Virus record (IMG/VR): IMGVR_UViG_2579778778_000007
Source of the DNA: a virus
Lineage: Duplodnaviria; Heunggongvirae; Uroviricota; Caudoviricetes
Length of the DNA: 34,897 nt
Direction: 5' to 3' (one strand)
The translations under genes and the position numbers were made by a program. The notes under the pieces are model-generated. The model did no database searches. It saw only the letters and a program-made list of their open reading frames with translations, and had not been told where the DNA came from. Positions 20 to 25,425 of the stretch are shown here, piece by piece. Within the stretch, counting starts at the first letter, position 1. The number at the start of each line of letters is the position of its first letter.

Positions 20-2386
20 TTAAATAAACATAAGAATAAACATCAGAAGTTCCTCGTATCTGATACCATACTGATAACCAGCAGGTTTAATAATAACCTG
101 CCTTCCTGTGTAATATTCCTCGTCGTACCACTCTCCTGTTTCATTGTTTTTAACACTCCTAATTAATACCTCTGGAGCATAAATATCATCCCATTCATCA
201 TAACACCAGAACGCATAGTTATTAGGTTCAAGACCGTATTTTCTGAGAATATTACCTACAGTTTGTGCACCAACACCGAAATGAATCCGAGCGCCATCAC
301 TCTTGATCTTTACTGCATCTTTAAATTTAAACCTCCAGATATTTTCCTTTATTTCAAGCGCAGCAAGACGCTCTGATTCTGTTGTTTTCTCGTCAGCCTC
401 AATACGCAATTTCAGCTCTTCATTCGACGTGTTGATACTGCCAGTACCAGCGTATACCTGTGACCATCGAAATGCTGATGTTCCGTTTGAGTTAACATTA
501 TCAACAGTTGGTTTTATAAGGCCAGAAAAATGAGTTTCAGGTGTATTAATATATGTATATGCACCTGCTGTACTGCGAGTCCTTAACTCAAAACTGTCTA
601 TATCAACACCAGTCCTACGAATTATAAGGAAGTTATTTCCTGCGGAACCAGTATCTGTTTGAGTGCTAACAGATAATCCGTTTCGTGTATCAATACGTAT
701 ATTCTTCCCGTTCTCCAGCGAAGCAGAATTATGTAGATGCAGCGAGTTGTCAGTGTAGAGATGGTGTTTACCTACATTACTAAATGTATAAGTATTGCTT
801 GTGTCATCACTGTTCCTATGGAATTGCTGAAGAGTGTAGGCAGAAGATGCTCCGTATCCATCACAATGGAAATTTCTGCACAGCTGCAAATCGAATAACA
901 ATACGGTGTCAGCATTAATGCTCACATTATTAAAGCATGTTGCAAAGTTGGCACCATACTGTGAATTGGAATCGCCAATCTGTGCGCACACATCAAGCAA
1001 ACCAAAAGTTACATTGGTAAAGTTATTTGCATCACCGGCGTCAAGAACAATCCCTTTCTTAGTCCCTGAATACCCTCTGGCAGTGCCGATCTCAATTCCC
1101 TGGAATGAACACACGCGAGCACGACTAAGCTTAAGACCAACCCATTCCAGACCATGATCGTAACCTTTTGCTGCGCGGTGAATAAACATACCATTCATGA
1201 TGAGCAGGAATCTGTTATCCAGCCGTACTGGTTCAAGTTGGGCATTAATACCAACATTTGTGCATATACATTCACCATAAGCATAACGATTCGTTTCAAA
1301 TATACGATCATCAGCGTCGTAAATGCCTCGTAATGCCTTGGCGGCATCAATATTAAGCAATGTAAAATATGTCTTCTGCTTAATTTCAAAAAAATTTGCA
1401 ACATTATGCGTTGTGATATCACTCACACGCATTGATAAAATCCCCTCTTCTGGAGCGGTGCGAATGAATCCATCAAGGAACTGTTCATTATAACTTTTGG
1501 CTATCTGATAACATCCAACAGCATCAATGCGTTCGATTGTGAATTGCCAACTATCACCACAGTTAAAAGACCATTCCCAACCGTATTTCTGTGCGAATTC
1601 ATCAGAATCAATATTTGCAGTCTCAGAACAGAAAGATAAAAATCTAAATGTTGGTTTTGGCCTTAGATGATTAAGCCCGACACCTCTTGGGGTATATATG
1701 GCATTAGCGCCATTCCCGCCTTTGCTTTTAATTGTAAGGTGACTTAAACCAAATTCAACATCATGCTTAGTTGGTGCAGCGAAAACAAATCCATCTTTTG
1801 GTGATGTGGTATTATCAAACACAATAACCGTTTTACCCTGTCCATCGCCACACATATTCACTGGTGGTATATTAACTGGTCCAATTAAATTATATGTTCC
1901 AGTTGGAATATATAACTTTCCACCATCTCCAAGAGCATTTGCTGCTGCAATAAATGCCACCGTATCATCGTTAACACCGTCACCTTTCGCCCCATAATGC
2001 TGTGGCGTAATTAACAGCATACGGTCAGAAAAAATCTCTGTCCTAAGTTGATCAGGATCGTATTTTAATACATTTGGAAAATAAAACTGCTGTGTACCAT
2101 ACGCATCATAAACAGCCATAGAATGGCCTTGCACAGTTACGAACTTGGCAATCTGTCCGTTATATACCGGATATCCAGCAGCATTAATGATGATTGGTTG
2201 CGGAACAGGAACGTGAGAGCCGTCTTCGTTCTCCACATAAACCTGAATCTGGTTTTCAGGATTTACCGGGTCAGTGTCAATTTTACCGATATAAATTTTG
2301 CCATTAGCTACGGCTTTAAAAGAACGCGCCATAGTGAAGAGTTGCGAAGGCATCGATACGATCACATTGGCTGTAATGTCTGTCAT
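20..2386 (-). CDS. Tailspike protein: P22 gp9-like N-terminal head-binding domain, pectate-lyase-like beta-helix receptor-binding domain, distinct C-terminal extension
   Basis: ORF track 788 aa; N-terminus [11 protein letters not shown]...[11 protein letters not shown]...[13 protein letters not shown] matches remembered P22 gp9 head-binding domain; [12 protein letters not shown] motif typical of beta-helix depolymerases. Confidence 0.85.
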
Positions 2387-2522: not shown

Positions 2523-2545
2523 AAAAAAACCCAGCCGAAGCTGGG
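2523..2545 (-). terminator. Rho-independent terminator downstream of ant (minus strand: CCCAGC-UUCG-GCUGGG followed by U7)
   Basis: GC stem with tetraloop and A-run on plus strand (U-run on minus) 20 nt downstream of the ant stop codon. Confidence 0.6.
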
Positions 2546-2564
2546 TCGTTGCGTTGGTTATCTG

Positions 2565-3488
2565 TCAGTAGTTATGTACTGAAGGAGGCAATTCTTTATT
2601 CTTAAGTCTCATCCATGCGGAAAGATTCGTTGGTCCGTCTGGCTCATTGATATCAACATCTCGTGTGTGGTTGATTAAAACGTCTCTCGCCATTCCGATA
2701 ACATACGAGAACTCATGACCATAGTCGTAGCATCTGCCGGAATAGTTCGATTGAATTTGTTTTAGCGCCGGATACAGTTCGCGGAATAATGCCTGTGAGC
2801 GGTTGGCATAATCCCATAACCATACAAGGCTGTTTGCTTCTTTTGCAGAAAGCTCGTTGGTTTTCTTCTCTTGTTTGCCGATTAACTCGCCTTCAAGCGG
2901 AACGCGAGCTGCAAGTGACAGAGCTTCGGTAAACTGCTCATCGCTGATTTCTTTGTATGAACACCCAAAATGAGATTTCAGTGACGACCACATGGTAATC
3001 ATTGCCTTCGCCTGTTTTTCTTTTGGCAGAGACTGACCGCGACTCATGACGAGTTGTTTAATGGCTTCCTGCTGTTCAGTGGTGATTTTACCCGGCAACG
3101 CCTTTTTAGCTTTGCGTGGGTTAACTACATGGCCTTTAGTCCAGTACTCGTAGAGCACATCGTCACACTCTTCCTGATACTGGATTACATTGTCGCGGAT
3201 TTCAGGGCGGACTTTGTTAGGGCTGATGGTTTGCAACCAGCCATTCAGTTTACGTAAAGCAAGGCAAATCATGGTCTGCACACCGCCAACTGAAGGTATT
3301 GCGATTTCCACAATACCTTTAGCAAATCTTTGTTTTAACTTTGTAAACTGTGAAGCCCAATCCATACCCATTCCCTCAACGATAGGTTTCATTGGGGTGT
3401 ACGGCTCACCGTTGTGATTGACAACATAAAGCTCTGCGCCGTGGAATGGTACATTGATAGTAGATACTGCTGTTGCTATACTTTTCAT
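2565..3488 (-). CDS. ant: Antirepressor (Ant-like)
   Basis: ORF track 307 aa; position downstream of arc and divergent from mnt-like gene exactly as in P22 immI; N-terminal segment resembles antirepressor family as remembered. Confidence 0.55.
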
Positions 3489-3570
3489 GTCGTTAATTCC
3501 TATGCGTGGTTTTACGATACCGAAGCCCTGACTGTTCCCGCAGTTGGGGCTTCACTGTTTTGATTTCTTT
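3489..3570 (+). ncRNA. Candidate sar-like antisense small RNA covering the ant ribosome-binding site
   Basis: Plus-strand promoter TTGATA (3454-3459) - 17 nt - TATACT (3477-3482) inside the ant 5' end, reading antisense across the ant SD; plus-strand hairpin 3522-3553 followed by U-rich tail to 3570. Confidence 0.35.
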
Positions 3571-3586
3571 GCCGCATCCAAGCGAA

Positions 3587-3727
3587 TCACACCGTTATCC
3601 CCTCTCTCCTCAGGCTGTCCAGCACCCGTTTAATTACTTCTGCGCTGAATGAGCGACACTCTTCCTTTGCTTTTTCTTCAAGGATTTTTTCTAGCTTCTC
3701 TGGCATACGCAGTGTTTTTACCTTCAT
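3587..3727 (-). CDS. arc: Arc-like ribbon-helix-helix repressor (46 aa, below ORF-track size cutoff)
   Basis: Hand-translated MKVKTLRMPEKLEKILEEKAKEECRSFSAEVIKRVLDSLRREGITV; SD GGAGG 5 nt upstream of ATG; resembles P22 Arc as remembered; sits between mnt-like gene and ant. Confidence 0.6.
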   Translation of the reverse strand: MKVKTLRMPEKLEKILEEKAKEECRSFSAEVIKRVLDSLRREGITV

Positions 3728-3740
3728 TGCATCCTCCGTT

Positions 3741-3804
3741 GTATGTGGTACGCATACATAGTATTTAGGTACGCATTGATAGTCAATAGATACCTACATA
3801 TCCT
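3741..3804. promoter_or_regulatory. Divergent overlapping promoters (Pant-like on minus: TTGACT-17-TACTAT; Pmnt-like on plus: TTGATA-17-TATCCT) with dyad-symmetric operator candidates
   Basis: Direct repeat GGTACGCAT at 3747-3755 and 3768-3776; nested dyad AGGTA..ATTGA tag TCAAT..TACCT at 3767-3795 centred on the overlapping -35 elements. Confidence 0.45.
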
Positions 3805-3832
3805 GTGGTAAAAAATTATTCAGGATGCGCCG

Positions 3833-4084
3833 ATGTCTGATCGTAAGTACAAAAACCCTCAAGTGAATCTGAGGCTTCCTGTAGAGATAAAGGAACGTCT
3901 TATTGAACTGGCTGAGGCTAATTCTCGTTCATTAAATGCTGAGATGGTCGCGGCACTTGAAGCGTGGACCGAAAAAAATAAACACATTCAAGCACTAGAC
4001 CTTGCAACTATAGCATCACGATTGATAGATCTTGAACACGATGTTGAGACGCTAAAGACCATGTATGGTAAGGATGCAAAATGA
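3833..4084 (+). CDS. mnt: Mnt-like ribbon-helix-helix repressor
   Basis: ORF track 83 aa (same length as P22 Mnt as remembered); N-terminal RHH-like segment NLRLPVEIKERLIELAEANSRSLNAEM; divergent from arc-ant. Confidence 0.55.
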   Translation: MSDRKYKNPQVNLRLPVEIKERLIELAEANSRSLNAEMVAALEAWTEKNKHIQALDLATIASRLIDLEHDVETLKTMYGKDAK

Positions 4085-4290
4085 ATAAAAAACAGTTTAT
4101 TAAGTCAACAACGTCAAGCAAGGAAGAGCTAGAGAAAGAGCTAAACTCCCTGAAATATGCTCTGTGTCTGGTTTACTCAAGACTGCCAATGGAAGATAAA
4201 AACGCCATTTACAATGAAATGATTAGCAGCCTTGATTTTAACGATAGAGACCTAGCATCCCACCTCAACAGCTTCCGCGTCCCTGAGTAA
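4081..4290 (+). CDS. Hypothetical protein, translationally coupled to mnt-like gene (ATGA overlap)
   Basis: ORF track 69 aa; start overlaps mnt stop; no recognised homology. Confidence 0.35.
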   Translation: MNKKQFIKSTTSSKEELEKELNSLKYALCLVYSRLPMEDKNAIYNEMISSLDFNDRDLASHLNSFRVPE

Positions 4291-4450
4291 TTCTGTTGCG
4301 GATTTGCTTCTTACGGTGGTTTAAGCTGGAGAGCTTGGCTTCTGCTTCTGATATTTGCGCATCAAGATCTTTAAGCTCAAGATCTGAAAGTCGCTGGTCA
4401 AGCAGGGTTTGGTTCAATTCAATGTTGTTCAGACGTTCTTCTATGGTCAT
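4265..4450 (-). CDS. Hypothetical small coiled-coil protein
   Basis: ORF track 61 aa; strong SD AAGGAG 5 nt upstream of ATG; begins immediately after the terminator at 4464-4489; overlaps 3' end of the plus-strand ORF. Confidence 0.35.
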   Translation of the reverse strand: MTIEERLNNIELNQTLLDQRLSDLELKDLDAQISEAEAKLSSLNHRKKQIRNRITQGRGSC

Positions 4451-4463
4451 GATTTCTCCTTAT

Positions 4464-4489
4464 AAAAAACCCACCTGAAGGTGGGTTTT
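4464..4489. terminator. Bidirectional rho-independent terminator (AAAAAA-CCCACC-TGAA-GGTGGG-TTTT)
   Basis: Perfect 6-bp GC stem flanked by A-run and T-run; between convergent transcription units. Confidence 0.65.
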
Positions 4490-4493
4490 ATAA

Positions 4494-5462
4494 TTAGATT
4501 TCTGGTTTCATTCTTCCGAAAACCTTTTCTATTCCTTTTTCGTATTCTTCTCTTGTCTCACTCATCGCTGCGACACCAAGAAGCTTACCGATATGCTGAC
4601 GCAAAGCCTTGACACCAATTTCAGAAAGGAACAGATGCAACTTATCAGATTGTTTTCCGTTCTCGTCTCGGCTGGCTCGAATCTGTTCAAGGATTTTACC
4701 TTTACTCTTTGCTAGCGGGGTGTATATCTGCATGTTGGTTAGCTGCCCAAAACGAATAGGCCGTCCTTTCTCTGGCCTATTCAGGCCGTACAGTCGATAC
4801 CACTCCTCGTATAGCTCATCTGGAAATTCCTTTTCATATTGACGAGCCTCTTCACGAACAAACGCTTTGAACTCGTCAATGACAGCCTGAACTTCTGGAC
4901 GATAACCAGCAAGCGCATACGCAACCCCCTTAATTCCCGCCTTAGCGGAGGCATTAATAAGTCTCTGTGCTGCGGCGGCTGCCTTTAACCGTGATTGTGG
5001 TAGATCGTCATTATCTTTGGCTTCTATTAGTGCCCTACCAATATCAACAATTGCTGTAATGTCATAACCTAACGCTTGATGAACGGTTTTAGACTTCGAA
5101 GTAAGTTGAAATTTATAGGGATTTTCCATTTTTCGCTGCAATTCTAGATCTCGGTATTTGCTCATATACTGAGCGCCAAGCAGTTGATCTAAATCCCTGG
5201 CATGTTCACCAATCCCTAGCAACTGAGATAATCCAGTTTTCGTAACAACGACAGTTTTCGACTCGTCATCCAGTACATAACATTCAGCATCAATGCCAAA
5301 ATCATCTAAAAAGTTACCACGATGAGTTGCCCTGAGAATCTTACTTTTCCATCTTGCAGCAGCTGCTTTCTTTGCTATTTCAGAACGCTGCTCTTTAGTC
5401 AGCGACTTTGCGCGAGCGATCCCGCCCTTAGCTTTCCCTTCGCCACTTTTCTTTTCAGTCAT
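4494..5462 (-). CDS. Hypothetical protein (322 aa from ATG at 5462) with lysine/arginine-rich N-terminal segment; function unknown
   Basis: ORF track 4494-5525 begins at a TTG; in-frame ATG at 5460-5462 with SD-like AAAGGTG; occupies the locus where P22 has sieA. Confidence 0.7.
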   Translation of the reverse strand: MTEKKSGEGKAKGGIARAKSLTKEQRSEIAKKAAAARWKSKILRATHRGNFLDDFGIDAECYVLDDESKTVVVTKTGLSQLLGIGEHARDLDQLLGAQYMSKYRDLELQRKMENPYKFQLTSKSKTVHQALGYDITAIVDIGRALIEAKDNDDLPQSRLKAAAAAQRLINASAKAGIKGVAYALAGYRPEVQAVIDEFKAFVREEARQYEKEFPDELYEEWYRLYGLNRPEKGRPIRFGQLTNMQIYTPLAKSKGKILEQIRASRDENGKQSDKLHLFLSEIGVKALRQHIGKLLGVAAMSETREEYEKGIEKVFGRMKPEI

Positions 5463-5555
5463 AATGCAAGCACCTTTGTTGTGATGTATGCTTGCATTAT
5501 ATGCACTGTACACACATACAAGCAAGCATAAAACAAAAACAAAATGCTTGCATTA
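5461..5555. promoter_or_regulatory. Divergent control region with two paired inverted repeats of motif TGCTTGCA/TGCAAGCA (operator candidates)
   Basis: 12-bp perfect inverted repeat ATAATGCAAGCA (5461-5472) / TGCTTGCATTAT (5489-5500); second imperfect pair 5521-5528 / 5545-5552; each pair has a 16-bp spacer. Confidence 0.45.
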
Positions 5556-18144: not shown

Positions 18145-19470
18145 TTAAGTTCTCCGTGCGATGGGCCTGATTGGGGCTGGTATCTTTTTCTCTTTTGGTT
18201 TTTTGATGTCGCGCATCATTTTGGCGAAGCGGCGCATCATGTATGCATAGCGAACGGCTGATAGCACGTCGTCGTTAAGCTTGACGATCTTCCCGTTTTC
18301 ATCACGGTGATAGAGGCGGAACTCCTCAAAGAATGGCTCACAGGTGTTGAATACTTTGAAGCGACCATCGAGCATCATGTCGCGCAATTCAGTGATGCCA
18401 GGCTCCACGGCATTACCGCCATCAGGCCATGTCGCATGCTCCTGCAACATCATAAAACCAGCGTCTGCATACTGCCCTTTGAGCTGCTCACCGCCGCCCT
18501 TCTCATGCTGGTTTCCGTCATGAGGCCATGCTGTTGGCACTTTATGCGCCCATGATTTAACAGCTCCCCATGCCTGAACGGCTGTTTTTTCTTTCGCCTT
18601 CCACACGCGTGAAACGTAGATTGTGTCTGCGTCCTTATCCCACCAAAGCTGAACCTGCGCCTGCGGGTGATCCCATCCGAAATCCATCCCGCCAATTACG
18701 TAGAAGTGATCAGGACACTCGAACGGCTGACACTTAATCGTCTCTTCCGGTATCTGGAAGATTCGACCACTACCCATCGTAGGAATACCGCGAGCACGCG
18801 CCTCTCTCTCATGCTCGGGATATGATGCGATGATTTGCTCTTTCTGCTCGTCGGTATAGTGCTCAGCGTCATAGATGGTCATGTTGACCACTTTCTGCGA
18901 CTTGCTGGGGTTCTTCAGGAACTTGGTAACAACGTCAGACATCCCCATCAGCGGGGTAAACGTCAGAATTGAGAATTGCCCGTATTTGTTGGTACGGGTA
19001 AGACCTTCGCCATAAATGCTGTATGGTGGCTCTTCGTCAAACCACACGCCGTGGATTGTGTCACCCTGCCAGCGAGCGCGGCCTTGCGAGTATGGTTTGA
19101 AGTAGCAGATTGAAATGCCATCTTCAACGCCATCAGCCGTGTGATGCTTAACCAGAAGATGATCAACAAGGTTCGGAAAGAAAGGAGACTTCTTCCAGCT
19201 AATGATGTCCTCTTTCGGTATTGAACCGTAGCCCGGCTCATCATTCTCTTCAATACGACCGCACAGGATGCGTTGAGTCGTTTTAGTTACCGTCTCGTTT
19301 GTCTCGCCGCCAATCCAGAAGACAACAGGCTCATAGAAACGCTTACCTTTCCACTCACCGCCATATTTACCATCAGCAGGATAGCCTTTTGTGCCCGGAT
19401 AACGCCCGGTAAGGTGAAACGCGACTTCAGCAGCACCAGTAAATGACTTACCAAGCTGGTTACCAGCCAT
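18145..19470 (-). CDS. Terminase large subunit, apparently 5'-truncated (only available Met lies just before the Walker A motif GNQLGKS; frame stays open upstream to 19578 without a start codon)
   Basis: ORF track 441 aa; Walker A at residues 4-9; upstream in-frame peptide ...[23 protein letters not shown] has no ATG/GTG/TTG and abuts the truncated ninI 3' end. Confidence 0.75.
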   Translation of the reverse strand: MAGNQLGKSFTGAAEVAFHLTGRYPGTKGYPADGKYGGEWKGKRFYEPVVFWIGGETNETVTKTTQRILCGRIEENDEPGYGSIPKEDIISWKKSPFFPNLVDHLLVKHHTADGVEDGISICYFKPYSQGRARWQGDTIHGVWFDEEPPYSIYGEGLTRTNKYGQFSILTFTPLMGMSDVVTKFLKNPSKSQKVVNMTIYDAEHYTDEQKEQIIASYPEHEREARARGIPTMGSGRIFQIPEETIKCQPFECPDHFYVIGGMDFGWDHPQAQVQLWWDKDADTIYVSRVWKAKEKTAVQAWGAVKSWAHKVPTAWPHDGNQHEKGGGEQLKGQYADAGFMMLQEHATWPDGGNAVEPGITELRDMMLDGRFKVFNTCEPFFEEFRLYHRDENGKIVKLNDDVLSAVRYAYMMRRFAKMMRDIKKPKEKKIPAPIRPIARRT

Positions 19471-19537
19471 AAAACAGCGCTCTGGATAGTCATGCCCGGC
19501 GTCGATGAACTCACGCTGTTTGCTGTATGGCGTAAAT

Positions 19538-20149
19538 TCATATATCGATATACATCTGGTTGGAAAACTTGAGTGGTTTCACTGCTGGCGTATGACCAAA
19601 GATGAACGTGTCCGCGCCTTTGATTTCTTTCACGACCCCGTCTTGTGAGTTGCTGATTCGTTCGCGGCTCCAGATTACCTGCTGATGATCAACTGGCTTT
19701 CCAAACTCGTATTTATCACAAGGATAATCGGCGTGGCAGATGACATATTTTTTACCTTTGCTCACCAGTTCGATGATTAACGGAAGTTCACCTGCTTTAT
19801 GGGCAAGAGCTTTAGCCAGAATTTCTTTGTCGTAATCGAGATTAAAGAACCAGCCACCGCCATTAAGCAGCCAGTGATTGACGTTTCCACGCTCTGATAA
19901 GCCATCAATCATCATTTGCTCATGGTTTCCACGTACAGCTCTGAACCAGGGGAATGTGATTAATTCCAGGCATTCGACGTTCTCTGTACCGCGATCAACC
20001 AAATCGCCAACCGAGATAAGCAGGTCTTTTTTGGTGTCGAATCCTATCGTCTCCAGTTTTTTCATCAGGTTCGTGTAGCATCCGTGCAGATCGCCAACTA
20101 CCCAAATATTTCGGTATTTGCTGCCATCAATTTTTTCGTAATAGCGCAT
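19538..20149 (-). CDS. ninI: NinI serine/threonine protein phosphatase, C-terminally truncated at a deletion junction
   Basis: ORF track 19538-20224; homology to remembered lambda phosphatase from [25 protein letters not shown]; sequence diverges after ...NQMYID and stops. Confidence 0.85.
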
Positions 20150-20333
20150 CTCTTTCACTCCATCCGCGATGAACCATGAGAACGTCGTTGACGATGGCGT
20201 GCATTTTCCCGTCTTTATCATCAACGTATTTTCTTACCGTGCCGCGACTACATTTCAGTCTGCGTGCCACTTCTGTCTGGTTTCCGTATGCTTCAACGAG
20301 CATGTCTGGAATGGTTTTTACTGAGAACGTCAT
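20127..20333 (-). CDS. ninH: NinH
   Basis: ORF track 68 aa; matches remembered lambda NinH; ATGA overlap with ninG stop. Confidence 0.75.

Positions 20334-24708: not shown

Positions 24709-25425
<717 letters not shown>

Follow-up and report, generated by a model that had tools for sequence, protein, structure and literature searches.

A probable P22-type immI module, with a sar-family antisense RNA, in a defective P22-like prophage of Escherichia coli

What kind of control region lies beside the tailspike gene of this Escherichia coli prophage, where an antirepressor gene, two small genes for ribbon-helix-helix proteins and a predicted antisense RNA are packed together, and does it work as its counterpart in phage P22 does? 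We propose, with a probability of about 0.9, that positions 2565-4084 of the window (by which we mean the whole stretch of DNA that was analysed, 34,897 nucleotides) are the immI region, also called the "ant moron" (mnt, arc, sar and ant), of a P22-like (Lederbergvirus) prophage, and that it should work as the region of P22 does. Such a module is of an ordinary and well-understood kind of phage control that is already known, and it is found here in a less studied sequence variant. Its significance extends little beyond annotation. The Ant, Arc-like and Mnt-like proteins and the sar RNA are each homologous to their P22 counterparts. Along the window the order is tailspike, ant, arc and then the divergent mnt, which is the P22 order, and a non-coding gap of 105 bp separates the 46-aa reading frame from the divergent one of 83 aa. 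The initial annotation of this DNA had proposed a P22 immI layout, and all of its elements are present where that annotation had placed them or within a few bases. The genes to which we refer are as follows.

20-2386, minus strand: tailspike gene, with the P22 head-binding domain
2528-2547, minus strand: t_ant, an intrinsic terminator downstream of ant, consisting of the hairpin GACCCAGCTTCGGCTGGGTT and then a T run
2565-3488, minus strand: ant, the antirepressor gene (307 aa)
3587-3727, minus strand: arc-like gene, encoding a ribbon-helix-helix protein of 46 aa and lying directly upstream of ant as the first gene of the predicted Pant operon
3833-4084, plus strand: mnt-like gene (83 aa, ribbon-helix-helix with a C-terminal extension)
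4081-4290, plus strand: reading frame of 69 aa, function not assigned
24712-25425: C2/cI-like repressor gene

The product of ant matches both of the P22 antirepressor domains (Pfam P22_AR_N, E 2.8e-44, and P22_AR_C, E 5.9e-30) and is 56% identical over its full length to P22 Ant (BK000583; 307 and 300 aa, respectively, E 2e-119), and its RefSeq name is 'phage antirepressor Ant'. The protein had been described as Ant-like, with antirepressor homology named as the point on which that description should be judged, and this homology is found across both domains. The sequence of t_ant is identical to that of the annotated ant terminator of P22. By analogy with P22, Ant would inactivate the cI/C2-type repressor of the prophage, and hence its synthesis would have to be held off. 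That repressor gene is part of an immC region in the same window, which comprises cI/C2-like repressor, CII-like and N-like genes, and the window further carries Erf, integrase and replication genes. Since these genes accompany immI, the window represents a P22-like prophage whose immunity is of the classic bipartite type. The combination of lambda-type immunity and an immI region in one prophage had been singled out as notable, a view that we do not share, as immC together with immI in one genome is the defining arrangement of P22 and has long been known (PMC8022706, PMC11016777). That the 'ant moron' varies from one P22-like phage to another is likewise known from earlier work (PMC2629481). 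In several complete E. coli genomes there are prophages 99-100% identical to the window over the immI region, and 472 of 5,426 genomes contain a match.

The prophage itself is defective. Homology to terL breaks off at about position 19544, with 100 nt left to the terL start, and a NinI-like gene adjoins. Because the terL homology abuts the NinI-like gene at this point, the late antiterminator (the late regulator), the lysis genes and terS are missing along with the 5' end of terL, and this deletion is a modestly new point. Derepression of Ant therefore could not yield phage from this copy. It is thus conceivable, although we consider it rather improbable, that the immI module is intact in sequence and yet a functionless relic that would at most affect other phages in trans, whether co-resident or superinfecting, with Ant serving as an anti-repressor and Mnt and Arc as immunity functions. 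The deletion at about 19544 speaks for such a relic, as does the reported action of P22 Ant on superinfecting phage (PMC11016777). Against it, the four components are intact, 99-100% identical to other E. coli copies and nearly identical to those of phage CUS-3. Moreover, the question of a relic bears on the relevance of the module in its host and leaves the identity and the working of the region unchanged. Lambdoid prophages resident in the same cell could still be affected by such an intact antirepressor module, even though the prophage that carries it is defective.

The features that belong to the antisense RNA are listed below.

3454-3482, plus strand: Psar (promoter scan), with the -35 hexamer TTGATA at 3454-3459, a 17-nt spacer, a TG extended -10 and the -10 hexamer TATACT at 3477-3482
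3489 to about 3561, plus strand: predicted sar antisense RNA, with its 5' end at G3489 by homology with P22 and its 3' end predicted in the U run 3558-3561
3489-3518, plus strand: sar stem-loop 1, complementary to the ant ribosome-binding site and bearing at its apex (3498-3501) the anti-Shine-Dalgarno UCCU
3522-3553, plus strand: sar stem-loop 2, a Rho-independent terminator with a 14-bp stem (terminator scan), followed by ACUGUUUUGAUUU

The antisense RNA is a member of the Rfam sar family. The match to RF00262 at 3490-3556 on the plus strand scores 76.6 bits against a gathering score of 43 (E 7.9e-16) and covers model positions 1-68 of 68. The other Rfam matches (ctRNA_pGA1, sroH, Phe_leader and others) are below their gathering scores and lie on terminator hairpins, and we regard them as chance. 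The RNA is antisense to the arc-ant intercistronic region and to the ant Shine-Dalgarno (AGGA, the complement of 3498-3501), and its predicted first base, G3489, comes directly after the complement of the ant ATG. When 3490-3570 (81 nt) is folded, two hairpins result (-28.3 kcal/mol, z -5.2), and both the MFE and the centroid folds have the same architecture as P22 sar. An antisense RNA of approximately 80 nt, ending in a hairpin and U-tail at 3522-3570, had been predicted. The hairpin and tail are indeed there, as the terminator scan returns the 14-bp hairpin at 3522-3553 and the DNA that follows it reads ACTGTTTTGATTTC, and the sar-like nature of the RNA is borne out over the full length of the RF00262 model, but the length has to be shortened, since by homology with P22 the transcript would be about 70-73 nt. 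We infer both that this transcript is produced and where exactly its ends lie.

The promoter that was expected within the first ant codons, TTGATA-17-TATACT, is found at 3454-3482 on the plus strand, where it matches the consensus at 10 of 12 positions and lies inside ant codons 2-12, antisense to ant. Its -10 hexamer and TG align exactly with those of the annotated Psar of P22 and epsilon34, and the region aligns base for base with P22 (BK000583) and epsilon34, in both of which sar, Psar and the sar terminator are annotated, across the -10, the ant start codon and the second hairpin. A generic promoter scan finds three sites in 2.2 kb where 3.4 are expected by chance, and hence the promoters discussed here rest on homology and conservation, in the case of Pant and Pmnt on conservation, and not on the consensus match. 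For Psar, every sar allele has a -10-like hexamer in the same register relative to the ant start codon, and just one of them (L046) lacks the TG upstream of it. In the RefSeq E. coli record that was examined, ant and both Arc-family genes are annotated, and sar is annotated neither in that record nor in the record of CUS-3, which makes the present locus a clean case for adding the annotation to E. coli and CUS-3 records.

The two halves of sar differ greatly in how they vary. IMG/VR was scanned with the stem-loop 2 sequence with one loop base left free (N; C or A), which returned at least 120 contigs, and stem-loop 2 is otherwise invariant in these contigs and in P22, epsilon34 and CUS-3. Among phage records and the IMG/VR matches listed there are 49 distinct sar variants, each of which was folded separately, the MAFFT alignment having put stem 1 out of structural register. 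Stem 1 forms in all 49 of the listed variants, though the stem sequences differ, with 5' half alleles that include GUUGGU/ACUGAC, GUCGU.AA/UU.ACGAU, GUCAAUA/UGUUGAU and GUCUUUUAUCC/GGAUGGGGGAC as well as others. The exact 73-nt sar sequence of the window occurs at 22 or more loci among the matches listed. Because the 5' alleles and the 3' tails assort independently among these matches, the invariant stem-loop 2 appears to be a mosaic junction.

This pattern might be taken to mean that the hairpin at 3522-3553 is a mere terminator or a recombination 'boundary sequence', that the Psar-like hexamers simply reflect the coding sequence of ant and that there is no functional antisense RNA at all. 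In favour of this view, the hairpin itself stays constant whereas the sequences on its two sides assort independently among phages, the CUS-3 record annotates the stretch around stem-loop 2 as boundary sequence, and the promoter-scan rate equals that of chance. We nevertheless think this very unlikely, given that the full-length covariance-model match includes the variable 5' hairpin, that every listed allele retains stem 1 although its sequence varies and that the -10-like hexamer stays in a fixed register with the ant start, with the TG in all alleles but one. In addition, the homologous transcript of P22 was detected experimentally, as stated in PMC13397905, which cites Liao et al. 1987. 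A role for stem-loop 2 as a bidirectional terminator that would also act on arc-ant was considered and rejected, as there is no T run after the hairpin on the minus strand, and the hairpin should therefore not stop arc-ant transcription. The RNA is not obligatory for the repressor module, because many of the Arc-like/Mnt-like modules in IMG/VR are without a recognisable sar.

The two repressor genes complete the module. The 46-aa Arc-like gene had been noticed outside the open reading frame list that accompanied the initial annotation, from which it was absent solely because it is short, and it is confirmed at 3587-3727 on the minus strand, with a Shine-Dalgarno (GGAGGA) 5 nt upstream and its stop codon at 3587. 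Its product matches Pfam Arc (PF03869) with E 1.2e-7 and 31.9 bits (cutoff 20.4), is 33% identical to P22 Arc (E 8e-9), has Arc repressor entries as its best PDB matches and is RefSeq protein WP_000865491.1, annotated as an Arc family DNA-binding protein. Likewise, the divergent gene that had been called Mnt-like, at 3833-4084 on the plus strand, deserves that name, as its product (RefSeq WP_001283827.1) matches Pfam Arc (E 3.2e-10, likewise above the curated cutoff) and shares 32% identity with P22 Mnt across 79 residues (E 6e-12), the two proteins being of equal length (83 aa). The BLAST alignment to P22 Mnt extends over residues 8-80 and so reaches the C-terminal domain, and the best PDB match, 1MNT, covers residues 8-51 only. 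That the two genes are instead unrelated ribbon-helix-helix genes (antitoxins or CopG/ParG-like regulators) that neighbour ant by chance and do not regulate it can be dismissed as highly improbable, for although such proteins are short, their Pfam assignments overlap (with weak matches here to TraY, FitA and RHH_5) and the Arc-like/Mnt-like pair can also be found without sar, it is specifically Arc and Mnt that the two proteins match best, position and orientation are as in P22, the Mnt-like protein has the length of P22 Mnt and aligns into its C-terminal domain, ant follows the Arc-like gene with no minus-strand terminator between them, and a toxin-like partner gene is absent.

In a sample of 80 IMG/VR loci whose proteins are 49-100% identical to the Mnt-like protein, an Arc-like partner is present in 76. 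The N-terminal strand of the Arc-like protein, MKVKTLRMPE, is unchanged in most of the relatives, including both of the main subfamilies, and the remainder of the protein diverges strongly; smaller Arc-like groups differ in this N-terminal stretch. In most relatives MKVKTLRMPE and the operator DNA both stay unchanged. The 69-aa reading frame at 4081-4290 overlaps the mnt-like gene by an ATGA start/stop, matches phrog_16466 (unknown function) and is probably co-transcribed with the mnt-like gene; the same reading frame is present in Emek as orf69. The mnt gene of the 'Gally' prophage of strain LF82 is reported to be induced 40-fold in macrophages (PMC9928086). We do not claim a link to that gene, as the primer arms published for delta-mnt have no match in the window or in the homologous locus of NRG 857C. 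As a separate observation, NRG 857C encodes Arc-like and Mnt-like proteins that are identical to those of the window.

Where would these two repressors act? The non-coding gap between their genes contains the following predicted elements.

3740-3758, either strand: dyad O1, TGTATGTG-gta-CGCATACA, an inverted repeat with 8 pairs when G-T is allowed, situated over the predicted Pant start
3747-3788, plus strand: two tandem 21-bp units, each headed by GGTACGCAT, 76% identical and spaced by 21 bp
3758-3786, minus strand: predicted Pant-like promoter, TTGACT-17-TACTAT (promoter scan), directed towards arc and ant
3762-3800, either strand: dyad O2, with its core at 3767-3795 and its centre at 3781, arms 3762-3779 and 3783-3800 (18 nt, 78% complementary), spanning both -35 hexamers
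3776-3804, plus strand: predicted Pmnt-like promoter, TTGATA-17-TATCCT (promoter scan)

The direct repeats and the dyad that had been noticed here both hold up. There are exactly two copies of the repeat GGTACGCAT in the whole 34.9 kb of the window, at 3747-3755 and 3768-3776 (chance expectation 0.23; two copies were reached in 1 of 100 shuffles), and the dyad said to be centred on overlapping -35 elements has its two arms at the positions given above for O2, about the centre at 3781, with the plus-strand TTGATA (3776-3781) and the minus-strand TTGACT (3786-3781) overlapping by one base. Conservation was assessed with 41 distinct upstream sequences from the 80 IMG/VR loci with Mnt-like relatives. 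The operator/promoter core, although non-coding, is strongly conserved, at 91-99% over 3740-3804 compared with 62-72% in the adjacent mRNA leaders and 78-88% in the first codons, and within it O1 is conserved at 93%, O2 at 96% and the -35 core TTGATAGTCAA at 99%. The predicted -10 hexamers vary and yet both keep A2 and T6, with TAnnnT in nearly all cases. Thus, the Pant -10 reads TACTAT, TAATAT, CACTAT or TGGTAT across divergent loci, with A2 and T6 invariant, and the Pmnt -10 among relatives reads TATCCT, TATTCT, TAATCT, TAACAT, TACCAT, TAATAT or TACTAT, which is always TAnnnT.

On this arrangement the predicted Pant and Pmnt would stand back to back and share only their -35 elements. As candidate operators, O1 would serve to block Pant alone and O2 to shut both promoters. 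Our guess is that the Mnt-like protein binds O1, because from that site it would keep Pant off and leave its own promoter alone, and that the Arc-like protein binds O2, from which it would block both promoters. The set of Arc-like protein, Mnt-like protein and operators is a distinct and widely conserved allele, which is a further modestly new point. We give roughly even odds to the broader proposal that this set represents a distinct immI specificity that would be heteroimmune to P22, that its control is rewired, with the -35 elements overlapping within O2 and with O1 over the Pant start within the 21-bp tandem pair, and that the unannotated arc would explain the control of ant in CUS-3-type phages. 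If true, the rewired promoter layout would imply a repression logic unlike that of the face-to-face promoters of P22.

The mechanism that we propose is patterned on that of P22 immI, as described in PMC2629481, PMC11016777 and PMC13397905. In the lysogen, the Mnt-like repressor, made from its own promoter, would block the divergent Pant. Should Pant fire, the Arc-like repressor would be made first and would shut the promoter region down again. The sar RNA, initiated at Psar inside the first ant codons, would cross the ant ribosome-binding site and end at the hairpin and U tract, and, as in P22, it would pair with the leader of the ant mRNA and so block translation of Ant. Any Ant that is made would, as in P22, inactivate the cI/C2-type repressor.

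How does this region compare with those already known? The immI region of P22 (mnt, arc, sar and ant; BK000583, 14519-15993) has the same gene order and orientation beside the tailspike gene, and P22 sar likewise runs antisense across the ant ribosome-binding site from a promoter that lies within ant. The two RNAs differ by one loop base in stem-loop 2 and by their stem 1, which is GUUGGU/ACUGAC in P22 and GUCGU/ACGAU in the window. The Psar of P22 is GTGTTA-17-TATACT, and the -35 of the window, TTGATA, is closer to consensus because of a 6-bp (two-codon) indel in ant relative to P22. The spacer between arc and ant is 98 nt in the window and 68 nt in P22, and sieA of P22 is absent from the window, with a P63C-domain gene and small reading frames in its place. 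The differences are greater in the repressors, with Arc and Mnt of P22 only 33 and 32% identical to the proteins of the window, and in the operators, where O_arc and O_mnt of P22 have no sequence in common with those of the window. The P22 promoters Pant (1794-1822, plus strand) and Pmnt (1827-1799, minus strand; both in L004 numbering) are face to face and fully overlapping. In the window, the best candidates, which are also conserved, are those predicted at 3786-3758 on the minus strand and 3776-3804 on the plus strand, and back-to-back promoters are thus predicted to be the one real architectural difference from P22. Because the predicted promoter geometry differs and the operators have no sequence in common with O_arc and O_mnt, the regulatory logic may differ from that of P22 in detail, and the conserved alternative operator/promoter layout offers a natural comparison with P22 Arc and Mnt for the study of ribbon-helix-helix specificity.

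The annotated sar of epsilon34 has a terminator hairpin identical to that of the window, and RF00262 and epsilon34 sar have the same two-hairpin form, in which hairpin 1 carries the anti-Shine-Dalgarno. The window has another allele of hairpin 1, as this tracks the ant leader sequence, and the 3' tail is ACUGUUUU in the window compared with AACUUU in RF00262 and epsilon34. A near-identical region is present in CUS-3, a phage of E. coli K1 (CP000711, 5572-7262), which is 93-96% identical to the window in nucleotide sequence over ant, sar, the promoter/operator region and the first mnt, with an Rfam sar match of 84.6 bits. CUS-3 has in addition, between arc and sar, a 67-aa Cys-rich reading frame (phrog_7150), as well as a second mnt of the P22-like type, and its tailspike is an endosialidase. 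CUS-3 has been said apparently to lack arc (PMC2629481). It encodes the same Arc-like protein as the window, unannotated, which contradicts that published view and is also modestly new, and the presence of an unannotated arc in CUS-3-type phages corrects the published inference of an Arc-less control of ant (PMC2629481).

The 32-nt terminator hairpin of the sar antisense RNA (window 3522-3553) is constant except for one loop base across the 49 sar variants among the matches listed, while in the listed IMG/VR loci (L007-L126) the 5' half and the 3' tail of the RNA, and also the arc allele downstream of it, reassort independently, and this combination of a constant hairpin with independently assorting flanks suggests that the hairpin serves as a recombination junction joining mosaic modules.

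The operator core, which is the conserved non-coding DNA between the divergent Arc-like and Mnt-like genes, is kept in the Arc-like/Mnt-like relatives L132, L165, L181, L184, L187, L196-L198, L205, L207 and L127 (SEN22), and in these same loci the Rfam sar family was not found within 1.5 kb on each side of the Mnt-like gene. The Arc-like/Mnt-like pair of SEN22 adjoins a putative antirepressor of another, shorter type. The retention of the operator core without sar, together with the SEN22 arrangement, indicates at the level of sequence that the repressor module is not tied to sar or to a P22-type Ant.

The Arc-like and Mnt-like proteins of the adherent-invasive E. coli (AIEC) strain NRG 857C (L209, 1029940-1030437) carry the same WP accessions as, and are identical to, their counterparts in the genome that matches the window at 100% over this region. 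A 40-fold induction of 'mnt' in macrophages was reported for the 'Gally' prophage of strain LF82 (PMC9928086), but since the published LF82 delta-mnt primers match neither the NRG 857C locus nor the window, this induction cannot be assigned to the window-type Mnt-like gene.

The prophage itself appears, as judged from its gene content, to be defective. Neither the gene 23/Q-type antiterminator nor the lysis cassette nor terS is present, and ~33 codons of terL are gone as well: the terL/portal homology to P22-like phages fails to reach the terL start by 100 nt. The junction lies at ~19544, within 19470-19560. Two genes of the window are described here:

19538-20224, minus strand, NinI-like phosphatase gene, whose 3' end adjoins the broken terL homology
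20-2386, minus strand, tailspike of 788 aa, ORF intact, with P22 head-binding and pectate-lyase-like domains

The endosialidase C-terminal and chaperone domains were matched only weakly by this tailspike. Its reading frame is intact, whereas an IS3 element splits the tailspike gene of E. coli GPEC79-13-647 (L006), a genome with 100% identity to the window across immI.

Where P22 carries sieA and orf59a, the window has different genes (4081-5525):

from 4081, plus strand, 69-aa ORF overlapping the stop codon of mnt
within 4081-5525, convergent, 61-aa ORF
within 4081-5525, 343-aa protein with a P63C domain
4466-4489, bidirectional terminator hairpin

The E. coli K1 phage CUS-3 provides a further comparison:

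L001 (CP000711), 3551-3957, region of the Arc-like gene, without annotation, and an extra ORF

The extra ORF, which encodes 67 aa, is Cys-rich (phrog_7150) and sits between arc and sar. CUS-3 was described as apparently lacking arc (PMC2629481), whereas an Arc-like gene is present, its product being not annotated in CP000711 and near-identical to the 46-aa protein of the window.
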